From Planctomycetia bacterium (GTDB lineage: Bacteria > Planctomycetota > Planctomycetia > Pirellulales > Thermoguttaceae), in the NCBI GenBank assembly GCA_030527105.1, contig JAUNBK010000002.1, forward strand, positions 44,215 to 108,214: 64,000 nucleotides of DNA, given 5' to 3'. The position numbers were made by a program, and so were the translations under genes. Within the stretch, counting starts at the first letter, position 1. The number at the start of each line of letters is the position of its first letter. A model generated the notes under the pieces. That model saw only the letters and a program-made list of their open reading frames with translations. It had not been told where the DNA came from and ran no database searches. Of this stretch, positions 5,789 to 17,579 are shown piece by piece.

Positions 5789-6128
5789 GGTTCGCAAGAC
5801 CAAAAAGAACGTTGAATCGATTCATGTTTTTGACCAGACCTCGGTACACCACCTTGCTGCGAATCGACGATTTGCGACGCTCAATATCGCGTTCTCAGTC
5901 GATTCCGGTGTACGTTTTGTTCGATTTTCGACAGGCGTTCATCTTCCCGACCGAATCATGCACGTTCGCCGCCGTACCCGCGATGGTGTGAACGTACGGC
6001 TGAATCATCTGCACCCACGCAGCCCACGGAATAATTTCTTCCATTTTCCGCAGAAATTCTTCACGCCTCGTGCCCCGTTTTCTGAGGGAATATTCGTAGT
6101 CCGTGAAAGTCATCTGTTCGTTCGTCAT
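5789..6128 (-). pseudogene. IS5-family (DUF772/DDE) transposase remnant, internally deleted
   Basis: The N-terminus MTFTDYEYSLRKRGTRREEFLRKMEEIIPWAAWVQMIQPY is typical of IS5-family transposases. It jumps directly to a DDE fragment (HTIAGTAANVHDS), then a stop at 5895-5897. The same frame continues with a C-terminal remnant, IRSKVVYRGLVKNMNRFNVLFGLAN. Total length is far too short for an intact transposase. Confidence 0.7.
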
Positions 6129-6328
6129 GGTTCTGCCGTCTCCGCGTTACGTTAAATCGGCATCATCTCCATACTACCCCAGATTATAGCACTTCTTAAA
6201 TTTCTGACAAGACCTGGGATTATACTCGTTCTCCTTTTAAATTCCCGTTTTATGCGACGCTTTGCGAGCCGTGGTGCGTAGCTCCAACGGCGGACGGAAC
6301 AGAAATTTTAGCGCGAAGTATTATAAAG
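6123..6328. repeat. Direct repeat copy 1 flanking the R-M cassette (IS5 5' end + family-A copy)
   Basis: 6123-6195 matches 8399-8473 at about 90% (CGTCATG.TTCT.CCG.CTC.GCGTTACGTTAAATC.GCATCATCTCCATACTACCCCAG.ATTATAGCACTT). In both cases a family-A copy follows in the same orientation. Confidence 0.8.
6221..6328 (-). repeat. Family-A element
   Basis: Near-consensus copy located between the IS5 tip and the methyltransferase gene stop. Confidence 0.9.
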
Positions 6329-6350
6329 CACGAGGAGCATAAAAACAGGA

Positions 6351-7298
6351 TCACTTGAGAGCCGGGGCAAAATCCAGTGCAAGCTGAGCCGTACTCAAGC
6401 GATTTCTAGCGACTGCGACAAAGCTCTCGTTTATTTCGATACCAATATAGTGGCGACGGAGGTTTTTGGCAGCCAAACATGTCGTGCCTGACCCTGCGAA
6501 CGGGTCGATGATGATCGCGTCTTCTTGAGTTACAAGTGAGACGAGACATTCCATAAGCCGAAGCGGTTTCTGCGTTTCGTGCAGACCATGATCGGTTTTA
6601 TCGCAAGGTACGGACAAAATATTCGAGTTTGCGCCGCTCCCTGTAGAGGAACGTCGCGTACAATATGTTGAGAGCGCGGTCTCGTTCCACGCGCCGACGC
6701 CGTATTCGGCGACGTTGTCCGCGAGAGTTCCACCAATTTTGTAGGGTTTTTGAAACCACAATATTGGTTCAAAGAGGGGTCGCAAATTAGCAACCCGCCA
6801 GCCTTCCCACAGTTCGGCTTGTTCGTCGTCTCCACGACGTTTGTATATTTCTGAAATTCGTTGTGCGCGATGTGGGGCGGTTGTTTTTTCCCAAGCCAGC
6901 ATGTCTTTAAAGGTGAATCCAGAGTCTTCGAGAGCGACGATACACCTATGGGCAAAACGTCGTCCAGCAAAAATCAAACAAGACGCTCCAGGCTTCAACA
7001 CCCTGAGCCACTCTTCTGCCCAAGAGGAGCACCATTTTTGGTATTCAAGAGGAATTCTTTTGTCGGCACTACTCCACCCATTCAGAGGTTTTCCACGCCG
7101 TTTGAATATAGCTCCCGCGTTATTTTGCGCGGTCGACGTGCCGCCCAATGCCGAATTGGTGTTATTGTGCAGCACATCCCACTCATCGTAACCTATTCCA
7201 TAGGGGATGTCTGAAATAATCGCGTGCGAGTACTCACTTGGAAATGTTTTCATCAATTCCACCGAGTTTCCGCAAACAATCGTATCTAAGTCAATCAC
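6351..7298 (-). CDS. Type II DNA methyltransferase, N4/N6 beta-class (motif IV before motif I); M.HindIII-like by context
   Basis: 315 aa. SDIPYG (DPPY-type motif IV) lies near the N-terminus and IIDPFAGSGTT (FxGxG motif I) near the C-terminus. Its start overlaps the end of the upstream endonuclease pseudogene by 8 nt. Confidence 0.85.
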   Translation of the reverse strand: MIDLDTIVCGNSVELMKTFPSEYSHAIISDIPYGIGYDEWDVLHNNTNSALGGTSTAQNNAGAIFKRRGKPLNGWSSADKRIPLEYQKWCSSWAEEWLRVLKPGASCLIFAGRRFAHRCIVALEDSGFTFKDMLAWEKTTAPHRAQRISEIYKRRGDDEQAELWEGWRVANLRPLFEPILWFQKPYKIGGTLADNVAEYGVGAWNETALSTYCTRRSSTGSGANSNILSVPCDKTDHGLHETQKPLRLMECLVSLVTQEDAIIIDPFAGSGTTCLAAKNLRRHYIGIEINESFVAVARNRLSTAQLALDFAPALK

Positions 7299-8160
7299 GC
7301 TGGATTCCCCTTATATAAGCGTCAATTTGTTGGATTCTCTCATCAATCTTCCTGCTTTTTATCAGTTCAGAGATAGCCTGCTCGCGAGTGTAAGTGGTTA
7401 TTCTTTTGCGTTCATTTTCCCAATACGCTTTTTCAACCTCTCCACGGCGTGCTATATCTTTAACGCATAAGGCTAAAACTCGATCAAAATCCAACAGCGT
7501 CAGCCCGACGGAGGACGCCAAGAAGGCATCGAAATTGCGAATGAAACACTTTTTCTTCTCGGCAACAACCACTTTATGCGAAAGCGTTTCTCCAAAACCC
7601 CACAGCGAAGAAAGATTGATGTGCTCGTTTTCTTTTATGCCCCGAGAAAGTAGGGACAGCAAATGCTCCCAACTCAACAAACAGACGTTATTATCGACTG
7701 CTTGCGCGTATACCTGACTCTGCGAGCGTGGATATTGAAAGTATGGTGAGCACAATACGGCATAATCGTGGTCTTCGCGCCAAGCAGCCAAAGCTCAAAC
7801 CTTAAAATCTTTCTGATTCTTGGCGGTACGACTCATACGAAATGTCTTTGCGTCTGCAACAAGCGTATAGCCAAAGATGTGGGATTGCGCGATTACGTCT
7901 GCGGCATCTCCTCTTTCGGATAGCACCGTTGATTTTAGTCCTAACTCACGAAAAGCGCGCGACAGAACGGCGTCAGACGCTTTAGCAAATAGTTTTTCCC
8001 CGGTTGAATCGTGCGCAATACTTTCTGGGATCGTTCCAATTTGCAAAAGCAATTCTAAAAAATTGTCTGTTGTGGACACAAAAGCATTGATTTTTTCGAC
8101 GTTATCGAAAAACCTCTCGTGCTCTCCTTTCGTGATCAAAGTTAAAAGTTTATTAAACAT
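7291..8160 (-). pseudogene. HindIII-family type II restriction endonuclease interrupted by one in-frame TGA (7795-7797)
   Basis: ORFs 7795..8223 and 7291..7791 are in the same frame and read ...LVADAKTFRMSRTAKNQKDFKV*ALAAWREDHDYAVLCSPYFQYP...LLSWEHLL.... As I recall it, R.HindIII reads LVADAKSFRLSRTAKNQKDFKVKALSEWREDKDYAVLTAPFFQYP...LFSWEHLA. The likely start is MFNKLLTLI at 8160, preceded by AAGGAG. Confidence 0.8.
7795..7797 (-). other. In-frame TGA nonsense codon inside the HindIII-like endonuclease
   Basis: The minus strand reads AAG GTT TGA GCT TTG GCT GCT TGG (K V * A L A A W). The homologous HindIII position is Lys, by my recollection of the sequence. Confidence 0.85.
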
Positions 8161-8398
8161 TAGACTCCTTTTTTCGTGATCCGTTGTCTCGCGGATAGGA
8201 TTTGCGCGCATGAACAGACCCAAGTAGTAACATTATACAGCAACAATGTTGATTTGTCAAGGCTTGTCCATAAAAAACGGAACAATCAGGTGCCTTCAAA
8301 TTTTGGTGGCTAAAAGGCAAAAAGAGCATATTCATCTACCGGAGCCGAGAACGGTGCGTAGCGCAGTTCTGGATGAAGCGTCAAACGATCCTTCCGTC

Positions 8399-8581
8399 CG
8401 TCATGATTCTACCGCCTCTGCGTTACGTTAAATCTGCATCATCTCCATACTACCCCAGTATTATAGCACTTTCTATACTCATTCTCCTTTAAAATCCCGT
8501 TTTGTGTGACACTTTACGAGCCGTAGTGCGTAGCTCCGACGGCGGACGGAAGGGGAAATTCTAACGCAAGGCGTTATAAAA
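8399..8581. repeat. Direct repeat copy 2 flanking the R-M cassette
   Basis: See 6123-6328. This copy lacks the 25-bp IR tip (6196-6220) present in copy 1. Confidence 0.8.
8474..8581 (-). repeat. Family-A element
   Basis: Somewhat diverged copy (TTTGTGTGACACTTTACGAGCCGTAGTGCGTAGCTCCGACGGCGGACGG). Confidence 0.85.
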
Positions 8582-8596
8582 TTCAACTACACCATT

Positions 8597-9724
8597 CTAA
8601 AAAAGCATCTCTTTGTAGATTTTCTCATACGCAGCGAGCATCTGAATTTCCGTGAAACGTTCGCTATAAACCGCGCGGGCGTTTTGTGCGATTTCGTGAG
8701 ACACATCTTCATGAACGAGGAGCGTCCTCAGGTGTCCCGCAATTTCGTCTGGATTTTGAGGTGGAGCCAAAAGTCCGGTGGTTGGGGAAGAAATGATCTC
8801 CGGGATGCCGCCGGTGTGCGTTGCGACAATGGGAACTCGCGACGCCATCGCTTCAAGGAGCGTGAGGGGCGTCCCTTCGCTCACACTCGTCAAAAGAAAA
8901 ATGTCCGCAATTTGCAGAAGGTCGGCAGCGTCGTTTCGTTCCCCCAGAAGTCGAGCGCGATCCTTCAAACCAAGCTCGAGAATATATTCCTCCAACGCGC
9001 GGCGCTCCGGACCGTCGCCCGCCATGAGTAAAACGACTGGTGTCTCCAACGGCGTCTGCAAGAGTTTTTGGAACGCCAAAAGCGCGGTTCTGTGGTCTTT
9101 GATCGGATCGAGACGTGCCGTGAGAAGAATGACCTTCTCTTTCTCCGCAACGCCAAGCGACCGTCGCAGGTCTCCTTTTTCTTCAGGAGTCAGGCGATTG
9201 GGGAGGAAACGCTCTCCATCAATGCCGTTATAAATAAGGTCGATTCGCGACGCAGAGATTCCCTCGCACCTCTCGACGGCAAGCCGTACGGAATCGCTAA
9301 CGGCGGTGGCGCGATCTTGCGAGCCAATGAGAAGTCGGTTGAAAATTTTGTGCTTCCAATTCGGAATGTCGGGATAAAAACGACCGTGTTCCGTGAAAAG
9401 AAGCGGCGGCGTTCGTCTCAAACCACGCGAAGCGAGCGCGTAAAAAAAGGGAGTGTATTGGTGCGCATGAACGAGGTCGACACGATATTCGCGCAAAATC
9501 TCACGCAAGCGTTGGAGGCAGGCACGATCCAAACCCGGGCGTCGATCGAGCGTTTCGACGTGAAATCTTTCGTTTCGAAGCGACTCGGACCGGACGCCCA
9601 ACTCATCGAGGCAAACGAAAATAAAATCCCATTCCGACGATCGCAATTTTCTCGCGATGGCGGAGGCGAGAATCTCCGCGCCTCCCACGTGGAGAGAGTG
9701 AACCAGTTGGCAAACGACTTTCAT
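8597..9724 (-). CDS. Glycosyltransferase family 4 (GT-B, EX7E)
   Basis: 375 aa with an N-terminal GGAE motif and a C-terminal EGTPLTLLEAMASRVPIVAT motif. ATGA overlap with the upstream gene at 9721-9724. Confidence 0.8.
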   Translation of the reverse strand: MKVVCQLVHSLHVGGAEILASAIARKLRSSEWDFIFVCLDELGVRSESLRNERFHVETLDRRPGLDRACLQRLREILREYRVDLVHAHQYTPFFYALASRGLRRTPPLLFTEHGRFYPDIPNWKHKIFNRLLIGSQDRATAVSDSVRLAVERCEGISASRIDLIYNGIDGERFLPNRLTPEEKGDLRRSLGVAEKEKVILLTARLDPIKDHRTALLAFQKLLQTPLETPVVLLMAGDGPERRALEEYILELGLKDRARLLGERNDAADLLQIADIFLLTSVSEGTPLTLLEAMASRVPIVATHTGGIPEIISSPTTGLLAPPQNPDEIAGHLRTLLVHEDVSHEIAQNARAVYSERFTEIQMLAAYEKIYKEMLF

Positions 9725-11022
9725 CCCACGAGGCTTTCTTCGTCGATATAAAGGTTCGGCTCAAAAAAACGCGCTCCACGCAGCTTGCTCAAAAGCGTCG
9801 TTTCGTCCAAGGCGGCATCGGGCGCTATCTCGACACACGACGGCGTGAAATTATCGTCCAACGCGCCGCAACGTCGGAGCCACGCGGTGTAGAGCCGAGT
9901 TAAATGTTCCTGAACCGGCGGGACTTCCGCTTTGAGCGTTGCGAAAGCGTCCTCTCTCGCGACGCGCGCAACGACGGGATTCTGCGCGTGAGGGAGAATA
10001 TCAAAAATAAATCGCTCGGGTTTGATCGCCCATTTCGGACCTTCCGTCGTTGAAATTTTCTTCACTGGCAAGTGGTACGGGAGAAATTCAGGATCCGCCT
10101 TCACCCTCCCCGCCATTCTTTTGAGGAACGCAACGTCGATCAGGTGGACGCCAATACTCCCCGCATGATAAAGCAGCCGCCCTTCGGAATCCATCAGCTC
10201 CGCAATTTCCCGTGGAAAATCCATATATTCAATCACTCGAAGCTGCTCCCCATCGCGCACGACGTTCCCAACCGCCTCGAGTGCGGTCTGTTTTTCAATG
10301 ACGACGGAAGACATTTCGCTGCGCTTTTGGAGGTGGAAGGCGAGAAACTCCTCGTTCATGAGCGGAACCAGTGGATTGTCGACGTGAAACGTCTGGAGCG
10401 TTTCGATTCCACAACGCTCCATATCGCGAAACGCCCCCGAAGAATGCAGCGCGGAAATAAGCCCACCGTGTCCATCTGGACCAAAATAGATTTGCCCTGG
10501 CGCCGACCAACAACAGCTGCCGTCCTCAGGGCAAATCGCGGGCATCTCGTGTTGAGTAAAAATGAAAAGATTCTCAGGAGGAAAACCAAAATAGTCGTGT
10601 TGGCGCAAAAATCCTTCCGTCTCCTCGATCAGAGGAGTGCTCGTCATGAGGTACACTCGAATGGCAACGTCATAAATCTTCCGCAAAACGTTGATTTTTT
10701 CGAAGTGAACCTGAAAGAGAGACTTTTTCCTCACGGGCGTGACGCCGACGCACCCTTTGGGAGTGTCGGCACCCAGGCGTGAACCAATCCCACCCGCAAG
10801 AAGGACGAGACCAAGGTGGTTCTGGTGGATATAGTCGTGTGCGTAAGCGCTTCGTCCAACGACGTTGTTTAAGTCCAAAACGCACATTTCCTCTGCACGA
10901 AGCGGCGCGAGGTTCGACGTGAAAACCTCGGCGCTCTTTTGTGAAAGGTATCTCTCGTACAACGCGCGGATGAGTTGGGGATCTGGCTGCATGGTTCGTA
11001 TGGTCGTTATTCGATTCGCCAA
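9721..11022 (-). CDS. UDPGP-family UDP-sugar pyrophosphorylase (UAP1/AGX-like)
   Basis: 433 aa with LLAGGIGSRLG (nucleotide-binding loop), a GPDGHGG motif and VEYxD-like VIEYMDF. Confidence 0.7.
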   Translation of the reverse strand: MANRITTIRTMQPDPQLIRALYERYLSQKSAEVFTSNLAPLRAEEMCVLDLNNVVGRSAYAHDYIHQNHLGLVLLAGGIGSRLGADTPKGCVGVTPVRKKSLFQVHFEKINVLRKIYDVAIRVYLMTSTPLIEETEGFLRQHDYFGFPPENLFIFTQHEMPAICPEDGSCCWSAPGQIYFGPDGHGGLISALHSSGAFRDMERCGIETLQTFHVDNPLVPLMNEEFLAFHLQKRSEMSSVVIEKQTALEAVGNVVRDGEQLRVIEYMDFPREIAELMDSEGRLLYHAGSIGVHLIDVAFLKRMAGRVKADPEFLPYHLPVKKISTTEGPKWAIKPERFIFDILPHAQNPVVARVAREDAFATLKAEVPPVQEHLTRLYTAWLRRCGALDDNFTPSCVEIAPDAALDETTLLSKLRGARFFEPNLYIDEESLVG

Positions 11023-12578
11023 TTCTTCAATTCTTCGGTCTTTTGGGAAATAAACATCCCAAACTCTTTGTCCAGTTCCGAATACGACTTGCCCAAGTAT
11101 TTAGGAATCGTTTGGTCGTTGCTCTTCCCCGTATACACATCAAACAGGACGGCAACAAGCGCGTCGCGATACTTGCCATTGTCGTAATAAACCATAAAAT
11201 GCACAAGCGCAGCCGATTGGCTGTACAACTTCGAAACCTCTGGATGGTTTTGGAACGCCTTTATCTTCATTTTCGACATTTGCTCGAGAGGAATGTAGTA
11301 TTGTTGCAAATTATATCGATATCTGGCGATAATCATCCTCTGGTCGTCGTATCCACCGACCGTGTGAAAGCCGTCGGTATCCTTGAGCGACTCCATAAAA
11401 ACGGCAATTCCCTCGATGATCCAAAAATTGCTGTCGACGCCCGCTTTGGGGTCGGTTTTGCGCGTTTCGTCGAAGAGCTGGTGCGTCGCTTCGTGATACA
11501 TGGTGCGAATATCGAATTGCTCATCCGCGAAAAAGTAGGCAGTTCTGTATCGCGGAGAGTACATTCCCGCAGACGATGCGATGTTTGGATTTTGCGCCTG
11601 GAGGCACTCGATATAGTTTTGTCGCGTCTTAAAATAGCAAACTTTGTGCTTTTGCCCCGGAATGGCAGCGCTCCCTTTTCCTTCGAAGAGAAGATTGACT
11701 TGCAGCTCAGTAAAACAATATCTCATGAAAAGTTGTTTCCACACACGGTGGAGTTTCTCAAGCTCGTTGCCAATTTTCACGCCCGCCTCGATGCTATGAT
11801 TTGTGACGATAATATAATTCGGCGTCTCAACAATCCAACCATTTTCGATATTGGCGTGATATTGAGCATCCTCCTCGGCAGAAATCCACTTGCCATTGAA
11901 GAAACGCTCGCCATTTTCGTAGCGTTTCACTTGTCCTTTTGGGAGCCAGCCGAAGCGTTCGTGATAAACCTTGCCCGCTTTGTACTGCGATATTTCAAAA
12001 TCCGTGAGCCACTGATTTTTGAACTTTTTGTAACCGAGGATTTTTCGCGCAGCCAAATGATCAGGATTCTCCTGGAGCGCGCGCATGAGGAGGTCGAATC
12101 CGAAGCCCGCATACCCCATTTTGACGGCACGTTTTGCGAGAGTGAACAAGTAGCCTGCCGCTTCGTCCTTAAGGTCTTTGATTTTCGCTTCCCATTCCTC
12201 TTCCAAGTTCGCGACACCATCGAAGGAACTGGCGTCTTTTTCCGAGTCAGACGCACTTTCTTTCTTGCTGGAGGACTTCTTCTTTTTCGTGCTTTTCGAA
12301 CTTTTCGCAGAGGCGCGCGCAGGCGGGGTGTCGTCCAGAATCTCCTTAGGAAGCTCCGCGACGTAGATTTTGTCGCCAGAGAACGTTCCTCGCAAGAGAT
12401 CGCGCGTCTTTTGCGCTTGCGTCGGCATGTCGTTTTCTTCACACCACTTCGCGATGGATTCAACCCGTTTCTCGTACGTCTCTTGGAACTTCAAATAGCG
12501 CGTGAGGATTGGATTTTCGTTTCCGTTCGCAACGGTCGGGACACACACGAAGAGGAGCGATATAACGACCGCACTCAT
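11007..12578 (-). CDS. Secreted HExxH protein resembling the DUF1570 / MA-clan peptidase-like family
   Basis: The start was moved to MSAVVISLLFVCVPTVANG (signal peptide) from ORF 11007..12731. YHEATHQLF motif; a K/S-rich low-complexity tract (SAKSSKSTKKKKSSSKKES). Confidence 0.55.
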   Translation of the reverse strand: MSAVVISLLFVCVPTVANGNENPILTRYLKFQETYEKRVESIAKWCEENDMPTQAQKTRDLLRGTFSGDKIYVAELPKEILDDTPPARASAKSSKSTKKKKSSSKKESASDSEKDASSFDGVANLEEEWEAKIKDLKDEAAGYLFTLAKRAVKMGYAGFGFDLLMRALQENPDHLAARKILGYKKFKNQWLTDFEISQYKAGKVYHERFGWLPKGQVKRYENGERFFNGKWISAEEDAQYHANIENGWIVETPNYIIVTNHSIEAGVKIGNELEKLHRVWKQLFMRYCFTELQVNLLFEGKGSAAIPGQKHKVCYFKTRQNYIECLQAQNPNIASSAGMYSPRYRTAYFFADEQFDIRTMYHEATHQLFDETRKTDPKAGVDSNFWIIEGIAVFMESLKDTDGFHTVGGYDDQRMIIARYRYNLQQYYIPLEQMSKMKIKAFQNHPEVSKLYSQSAALVHFMVYYDNGKYRDALVAVLFDVYTGKSNDQTIPKYLGKSYSELDKEFGMFISQKTEELKNWRIE

Positions 12579-12785
12579 ACAAAAGCGCCCCCACGGAGTA
12601 TTCCTCTCCGAGCGAGTCCAAAAAGTTGTGGAGGACGGACTATTTAAACGCAACGGATATAAAATCGCTGGTATATTTTTCAACAACATTATCACTCTCT
12701 CCCAATAATACGGAAACAGGACACAAGACACGAATTACATTCTACCACAAAAGAGGAATAAATGGAAGTGATTTTGCCACCAAAA

Positions 12786-12826
12786 AGCAAGAAAAAAAGA
12801 AAAACTGCCCGAAAAAAGCAGTTTTT
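12786..12826 (-). terminator. Rho-independent terminator downstream of tRNA-Asn (stem also usable on the plus strand)
   Basis: AAAACTGC (12801-12808) pairs with GCAGTTTT (12818-12825). On the minus strand it is followed by CTTTTTTTCTTGCTTTTT. Confidence 0.5.
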
Positions 12827-17195: not shown

Positions 17196-17420
17196 ATGAG
17201 ACATTTCGATAGCAAAAACATCCTCGCGGCGGTCGCGTCGCTCATTGTCCCTGGTTTGGGGCAATTGTTCCAAAAGCGTTTTTTTAGCGCGATTTTTTGG
17301 TTTTTGCTCCATCTTGGGCTGGGGATTTTTTCCCTCGGCGTCAATGCGGCAGGGACGTTATTTTGGATCGCCGCTTGGCTCATCTGCGTGTGGAATGCAG
17401 CAACGTACAACCCGGAGTGA
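17196..17420 (+). CDS. Small two-TM membrane protein (TM2-like, PGLGQ motif)
   Basis: 74 aa with a strong RBS (TAAGGAGA) 7 nt upstream and two hydrophobic helices. Confidence 0.6.
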   Translation: MRHFDSKNILAAVASLIVPGLGQLFQKRFFSAIFWFLLHLGLGIFSLGVNAAGTLFWIAAWLICVWNAATYNPE

Positions 17421-17579
17421 GAGTCGACCGCGACGCGGCAAAAACGCGATTTTCGTCGCAGTTCCTACAAACCAACGACAAATACAAGGTTTATTCGCTT
17501 TCCCCTGCATTTTTCGTTTGACTTCCAGAAAAAATGTGTTTTAATACATATGGAAGGTTTTTTTCAGGGAGGAATTGCC

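Follow-up and report, generated by a model that had tools for sequence, protein, structure and literature searches.

The prototype for the locus discussed here is the HindIII system of Haemophilus influenzae Rd (PDB 2E52/3A4K), in which the endonuclease gene is followed head-to-tail by the methylase gene, and the methylase start lies just before the endonuclease stop (PMC12294265). In a paper on PsaI, an isoschizomer of HindIII, DIPY is named as motif IV of the M.HindIII-type methylase family, and the characterised enzymes for AAGCTT share only 18-57% identity (PMC12294265). In the published model, type II restriction-modification systems decay stepwise, with the endonuclease lost first and the methylase then either kept or lost (PMC6471742, citing Seshasayee et al. 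2012). A HindIII-type cassette is found on the minus strand of the window, by which is meant the whole 64-kb stretch of DNA that was analysed, and which belongs to the metagenome bin of a Thermoguttaceae-like planctomycete (210 contigs, 4.10 Mb, 94% complete). Its endonuclease gene is interrupted by a single in-frame TGA, and its methylase gene is uninterrupted. Read most simply, the locus is a type II restriction-modification system in ordinary decay that began with the endonuclease, and a genuine nonsense pseudogene of a HindIII-type endonuclease beside a still-functional methylase is given a probability of roughly 0.8.

The endonuclease gene spans positions 7291-8160 of the minus strand and comprises 289 codons with one internal stop. 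The open reading frame (ORF) listing divides it into two frames, 7795..8223 (-) of 142 residues and 7291..7791 (-) of 166 residues, which the first-pass annotation took to be a single HindIII-family endonuclease gene parted solely by the TGA at 7795-7797. This holds: the two lie in the same frame, both match the Pfam family RE_HindIII (PF09518) on adjoining profile positions, and there is no other stop or frameshift in 7291-8160, the translation of which reads ...NQKDFKV*ALAAWRED... across the junction. The 5′ part (7798..8160, minus strand) supplies 121 codons from the ATG at 8160 and matches profile positions 18-122 with 117.9 bits. The 3′ part (7291..7794, minus strand), the frame of which is open throughout its 167 sense codons and ends at the natural TGA stop at 7293-7291, matches positions 125-281 with 85.6 bits. 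In the profile search that the first-pass annotation had proposed as a check, the joined protein covers positions 18-281 of 285 and reaches 217.7 bits, where the cut-off is 25.3. Furthermore, a phmmer search of the PDB aligns residues 3-287 with residues 7-293 of R.HindIII (E 3.8e-69), and reproduces the alignment across the junction that the first-pass annotation had given, with the TGA opposite the Lys of R.HindIII in ...KDFKVKALSEWRED... By descent the gene is a member of the HindIII family (PF09518), and by its sequence it is a pseudogene.

An AlphaFold model built on a 33-sequence alignment (pLDDT 91.2, pTM 0.88) superposes on the HindIII crystal structure 2e52_A with a TM score of 0.93, an rmsd of 2.1 Å, and 42% identity. 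All 33 aligned sequences share Asp88, Asp103, and Lys105, which the model places on adjacent strands, and the core residues of the PD-(D/E)XK fold are kept; judging from this conservation and placement, the three residues probably serve in catalysis. The catalytic residues of HindIII itself are probably Asp108, Asp123, and Lys125; the assignment made here draws on the invariant columns and the model. In the model, the 5′ part of the gene encodes the first three core beta-strands (76-79, 89-92, and 99-104) together with the invariant Asp88 and Asp103-Ala-Lys105 located on them, and the 3′ part encodes the remaining core strands (133-138 and 159-163) followed by the entire C-terminal helical half. 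The stop itself interrupts helix 118-128, midway through the catalytic core. A product of 121 residues would thus be predicted to comprise less than half of the full chain, with the core sheet incomplete. Since two core strands and the C-terminal helical half would be absent, such a product should not cut DNA, and cutting activity has probably been lost.

The codon at which the stop occurs is one at which the family is hypervariable, with V in 37 homologues, T in 23, G in 19, A in 13, and S in 13, followed by P, N, K, M, and E. The five closest homologues all have Gly in this column, encoded by GGG in both of those whose DNA was read, and the stop would most simply have arisen by a change of a Gly codon from GGA to TGA. 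An origin from the Lys codon AAA, which would place an AAGCTT site inside the gene, was considered and dropped because the closest homologues have Gly GGG. In all other respects examined the gene appears fresh. Its 289-codon length and 8-nt overlap with the methylase gene are identical to those of its intact closest homologues (74% identity), and it keeps 78 of the 81 columns in which conservation reaches 95% or more across 117 full-length homologues. Among intact homologues the average number of such columns missed is 1.0, and 15% lack at least three. The retention of these columns and the lack of a second stop or frameshift argue that the stop is young, and they fit recent inactivation, one of the options listed in the first-pass annotation. 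Given that 4.7% of the possible substitutions in the gene create a stop, and with an indel-to-substitution ratio taken as 0.05-0.2, the neutral divergence since the knock-out is bounded at about 0.014-0.036 substitutions per site (95%). The ratio of nonsynonymous to synonymous substitution rates (dN/dS) of this endonuclease gene is itself uninformative, since its nearest relative has 74% nucleotide identity and synonymous sites are saturated. Three codons past the stop, residue 125 (window 7783-7785) is Ala, where 117 of 117 homologues and R.HindIII have Ser. The Ala might have damaged activity as a further, missense mutation, or might have attenuated the enzyme before the stop arose.

The methylase gene (6351..7298, minus strand) begins with GTG and encodes an uninterrupted beta-class N6-adenine methylase of M.HindIII type with 315 residues. 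It scores 152.9 bits against PF01555 (cut-off 26.7), keeps motif IV as DIPY (SDIPYG) and motif I, FxGxG, as DPFAGSGTT, and aligns without gaps in the conserved blocks to ten homologues. With its GTG at 7298, the methylase gene begins ahead of the endonuclease stop (7293-7291), and the two genes share the 8-nt overlap GTGATTGA; the first-pass annotation was correct on both the intactness of the methylase and the overlap. A Shine-Dalgarno-like AAGGGG lies 8 nt before the GTG. Upstream of the cassette, a sigma-70-type promoter is predicted at 8232..8260 (minus strand; TTGACA and TATAAT separated by 17 nt, 12 of 12 consensus positions), about 70 nt 5′ of the endonuclease start, and AAGGAG at 8170-8165 precedes the endonuclease ATG. 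The predicted promoter lies in sequence unique to this locus, as 8161-8288 finds only itself in a BLAST search of the genome. Another predicted promoter, with 11 of 12 matches, is located at 6210-6183 (-), inside a repeat block downstream of the cassette. The TGA ends the endonuclease frame 500 nt too soon, which removes its translational coupling to the methylase and might bring about transcriptional polarity on the methylase gene.

The arrangement is therefore like that of HindIII in several respects: the endonuclease is 42-43% identical over the full length, the two genes lie head-to-tail with the endonuclease first and with overlapping stop and start, and the methylase is a beta-class N6-adenine enzyme with DIPY. 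It is unlike HindIII in the TGA at codon 122 of the endonuclease gene and in its planctomycete host. The specificity of this endonuclease-methylase cassette is most likely AAGCTT. The undamaged methylase would be expected to keep methylating this site.

The TGA codon is a normal stop in this genome. It closes 1107 of 2621 long open frames (42%) and is the commonest stop genome-wide, TGAG is the most frequent four-base terminator context, and both genes of the cassette terminate at TGA. ARAGORN finds 42 tRNAs, including a tRNA-Trp with the anticodon CCA; no tRNA-Sec, TCA-anticodon tRNA, or suppressor tRNA is present among the 42, although at 94% completeness of the genome this is not a full exclusion. 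Nor was a hairpin found after the TGA, as the 96 nt around the stop fold worse than shuffled controls (z = +1.38). Recoding of UGA, either as selenocysteine or in the manner of genetic code 4, was rejected on these three grounds, and the first-pass annotation had likewise judged it unlikely because other genes in the window end at TGA. The example that it gave for this, a TGA at 17421-17423, is misplaced; the codon lies at 17418-17420 and closes a 74-residue ORF of uncertain reality. The general point stands on the genome-wide count.

The same pattern recurs in relatives. All 261 genomes of the family were searched with PF09518, and each locus was judged by tblastn with both the endonuclease and the methylase. 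The endonuclease family is present in 18 of these genomes, with 10 copies intact, 6 broken, and 2 cut by contig ends. This census softened a first impression that five of six endonuclease genes in the order were broken. Each of the six broken copies has its own separate lesion or lesions, and five have a single one. In addition to the TGA at codon 122 in the genome of the window (G000), these comprise a change of CGA to TGA near codon 240 (G012), a 1-nt frameshift near codon 225 (G013), a C-run frameshift at codon 144 (G006), and frameshifts near codon 100 in G1298 and G1386, the former of which also appears to have two further stops in the overlap of the frames. A genome of the sister family (G048) carries a frameshift in an A-run. 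Within the genus, all four carriers are broken, each at a different place. Intact copies are found elsewhere, two in the rest of the phylum and six in genomes of Clostridia or Synergistota. No interruption of the partner methylase is seen in any copy complete enough to be assessed, such that the score in the family is six broken endonucleases versus no broken methylases.

Selection on the endonuclease can be estimated from two of the congeners. Between G012 and G006, dN/dS is 0.09 for the endonuclease (dS, the synonymous divergence, 1.2-1.5), compared to 0.065 for the methylase (dS 0.81) and 0.036-0.038 for the flanking genes (dS 0.64-0.77). The low value for the endonuclease indicates purifying selection over nearly the entire divergence of the two, and thus that the knock-outs came late and independently.

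These observations suggest the following course. One nonsense substitution at codon 122 would recently have knocked out the endonuclease, with translation ending after 121 residues, and the cell would now be endonuclease-minus and methylase-plus, its undamaged methylase continuing to methylate AAGCTT. On this account the stop would be fixed in the population. On this textbook reading, a type II cassette acts as an addiction module that is risky to lose whole, and inactivation of the endonuclease is the only safe way to begin its loss (PMC6471742). The cassette is like other decaying type II systems in that a broken endonuclease gene adjoins an intact methylase gene. It differs from them in that the step seen here is very early, a single substitution, and in that there is no sign of a conserved orphan, since 10 of the 14 genomes in the genus lack the methylase. 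In Helicobacter pylori, many inactive endonuclease genes stand beside active methylases.

The first-pass annotation described the locus as a system in transition to an orphan methylase. Its main points hold, with an endonuclease gene that is broken and a methylase gene that is intact, but an orphan methylase would be just one of several end points. Within the genus, the methylase was found in the four genomes that have an endonuclease remnant and in none of the other ten. Because it is never seen there without such a remnant, the orphan end point is not favored, and the cassette may equally well, or more readily, be lost in its entirety. For the same reason, classification as a conserved orphan methyltransferase was rejected.

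Several points weigh against a fixed null allele. The population may be mixed, with the TGA as one of its alleles, and the independent Logan contig that carries it could come from the very run that yielded the genome bin. The predicted promoter and ribosome-binding site of the endonuclease gene still appear perfect, and the stop column tolerates at least ten residues, so that rare read-through of UGA would plausibly give a full-length enzyme. Relatives were also to be checked for an uninterrupted allele according to the first-pass annotation, and intact homologues do exist, but only at a distance: no near-identical intact allele was found for comparison in 5.8 billion proteins, where the best match is 74% identical, and two exact-pattern scans of JGI metagenome contigs, in which NNN replaced the stop codon, gave no match.

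Of the competing explanations, the one that fares best is that intact and stop alleles coexist within the population, that the assembly reports the null, and that the species still restricts. The source is indeed a metagenome bin of 210 contigs, and the young and different single lesions in all four carriers of the genus, despite a dN/dS of 0.09, would fit nulls that continually arise and are short-lived. Over 6521 bp, window 6271-12791 is matched with 100% identity, TGA included, by the 6592-bp Logan contig SRR24915838_11239, and the Logan gene caller likewise divided the endonuclease gene into two. Such identity is compatible with a minority intact allele in the population. That two assemblers give the TGA, with no alternative contig, counts against coexistence weakly, as contigs drop rare variants, and the failure of the protein and JGI searches to recover a near-identical intact allele counts against it also. 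Coexistence is therefore considered unlikely, though well short of negligible.

It is very improbable that the stop merely attenuates the enzyme, with weak restriction persisting through rare read-through of UGA by a near-cognate tRNA, or through re-initiation and reassembly of the two fragments. The features that would permit this are present: the permissive stop column, the 12-of-12 consensus promoter and the AAGGAG ahead of the gene, and a TTG at 7791, the second codon past the TGA, which has AAGG 7 nt upstream and could allow re-initiation into the 167 open codons downstream. However, none of the 117 full-length homologues has a stop here, so that this is no conserved design, TGAG is the commonest terminator context of the genome and no structure that promotes read-through accompanies the stop, and a protein divided inside helix 118-128 of the catalytic core, where the model places the break, is unlikely to be viable. 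An error of sequencing or assembly that hides two intact genes, another option raised in the first-pass annotation, is conceivable for a single-base difference in a draft metagenome bin but scarcely credible, as the independent Logan assembly carries the identical base, which makes an assembler artefact unlikely, other restriction genes of the genome are uninterrupted, and independent breakage in five family relatives and one sister-family genome shows that real breakage is common.

The cassette appears to have moved between distant hosts. Its best relatives are found in bins of anaerobic Firmicutes and Synergistota (Syntrophomonadaceae, Defluviitaleaceae, Oscillospiraceae, and Synergistaceae), with 66-74% identity for the endonuclease and about 75-76% for the methylase, and these share both the 289-residue length and the 8-nt overlap. 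They differ from the planctomycete copy in being intact and in having unrelated flanking DNA. The presence of intact close copies in distant phyla with unrelated flanks indicates that the cassette is horizontally mobile, and that it was transferred into or out of the planctomycete lineage. The neighboring housekeeping gene has its best named relatives in bins of Planctomycetia, Thermoguttaceae, and Pirellulales. The cassette is bracketed by two copies of a composite direct repeat of about 200 bp, one upstream (8388..8580) and one downstream (6112..6327), which consists of a piece resembling an IS5 end and a miniature repeat of about 108 bp. The miniature repeat is unusually abundant, with 585-724 BLAST hits for the two flank queries in the 4.1-Mb genome, and recurs at many other places on contig C102.

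At a locus that they have in common, the congeners G012 (L002), G013 (L003), and G006 (L005) hold another HindIII-type cassette, with 45-63% identity to that of the window. The site of their cassette is empty in the genome of the window (C102:11168-11230), where the flanking genes are adjacent. A different cassette at a different locus means that the genus gained such systems at least two times. The corresponding empty site for the window's own cassette could not be defined in congeners, as synteny is lost downstream of the neighboring glycosyltransferase gene in 8 of 8 (55-58% protein identity).

The genome also appears to bear the mark of AAGCTT-specific cutting. Across the whole genome 163 AAGCTT sites are observed versus 911 expected under a maximal-order Markov model, a ratio of 0.18, or about five-fold depletion, which makes AAGCTT the second most avoided of the 64 six-base palindromes. 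The 64-kb window contains a single site, and none lies in 6101-8600. A cruder measure, the ratio of AAGCTT to its reversed word TTCGAA, is 0.08 in this genome (G000). Among congeners it is 0.09 (G013), 0.14 (G006), and 0.32 (G012) in those with the system, and 0.21 (G009) and 0.30 (G005) in those without it, and in other genera of the family together with the sister-family genome (G229, G017, G048, G061, and G024) it is 0.37-0.68. Avoidance is thus strongest in the genome of the window, yet common to the genus, which argues for long exposure of the lineage to an AAGCTT specificity rather than a very recent arrival. The pattern points to HindIII-type cutting over a long past and lends indirect support to AAGCTT as the target; the 42-43% identity of the endonuclease to R.HindIII compares with the 18-57% found among the characterised enzymes of this specificity.

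Other palindromes are also avoided, namely GAGCTC (observed/expected 0.11), CCGCGG (0.23), GCATGC (0.25), and GTTAAC (0.26), and methylase searches of the genome give about ten matches to PF01555 and up to three to C5-methylases. Together these indicate a rich restriction history. An XcyI-family endonuclease (371.9 bits, full length) and its methylase form an intact pair at G000:C149:21859-23830 (L038:2860-4831), and an Mrr-like protein adjoins another methylase. The XcyI-type pair serves as an internal control for intact restriction genes, and because its endonuclease gene is intact, the breakage of the HindIII-type gene does not reflect general decay of the genome. Elsewhere, at G000:C69:32832-33839, a PF01555 match lies in a 657-residue open frame with one in-frame TGA, which may be another broken gene.

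Phase-variable restriction-modification through switching of repeat tracts occurs in Haemophilus, Neisseria, and Helicobacter. The cassettes described here resemble such systems in that the endonuclease is turned off by a small and in principle reversible lesion, and in that two relatives are broken in short runs of C or A. They differ in that the lesion in the window is a base substitution with no change in a repeat tract, and in that the runs of the relatives are just 4-6 bases long. The context of the stop, AAG GTT TGA GCT TTG, contains no simple-sequence repeat, and assignment of the locus to the phase-variable systems was rejected because the lesion at 7795-7797 does not lie in a repeat tract.

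Young null alleles with a single lesion in all carriers of the genus, and in about one third of the carriers in the family, despite long purifying selection, could nevertheless reflect a recurring population process. Endonuclease-off alleles might arise and spread continually as dead ends, or leaky alleles might be selected to lower restriction. Both versions are put forward tentatively, the sample being small and the genomes related. If true, such a process would amount to a standing on/off polymorphism of restriction without phase-variation repeats.

Taken alone, the cassette is routine, a restriction gene one mutation into decay beside a whole methylase. It does illustrate cleanly, in nature, the rule that loss begins with the endonuclease. 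For annotation, the two ORFs are to be merged into one pseudogene and the methylase treated as functionally solitary, and in reading a methylome of this organism, N6-methyladenine at AAGCTT would be expected without restriction activity, going by the sequence of the two genes. The independent young knock-outs within the genus could serve the study of how often and why bacteria turn restriction off. Ultimately, the avoidance of AAGCTT suggests that HindIII-type cutting has long shaped these genomes.

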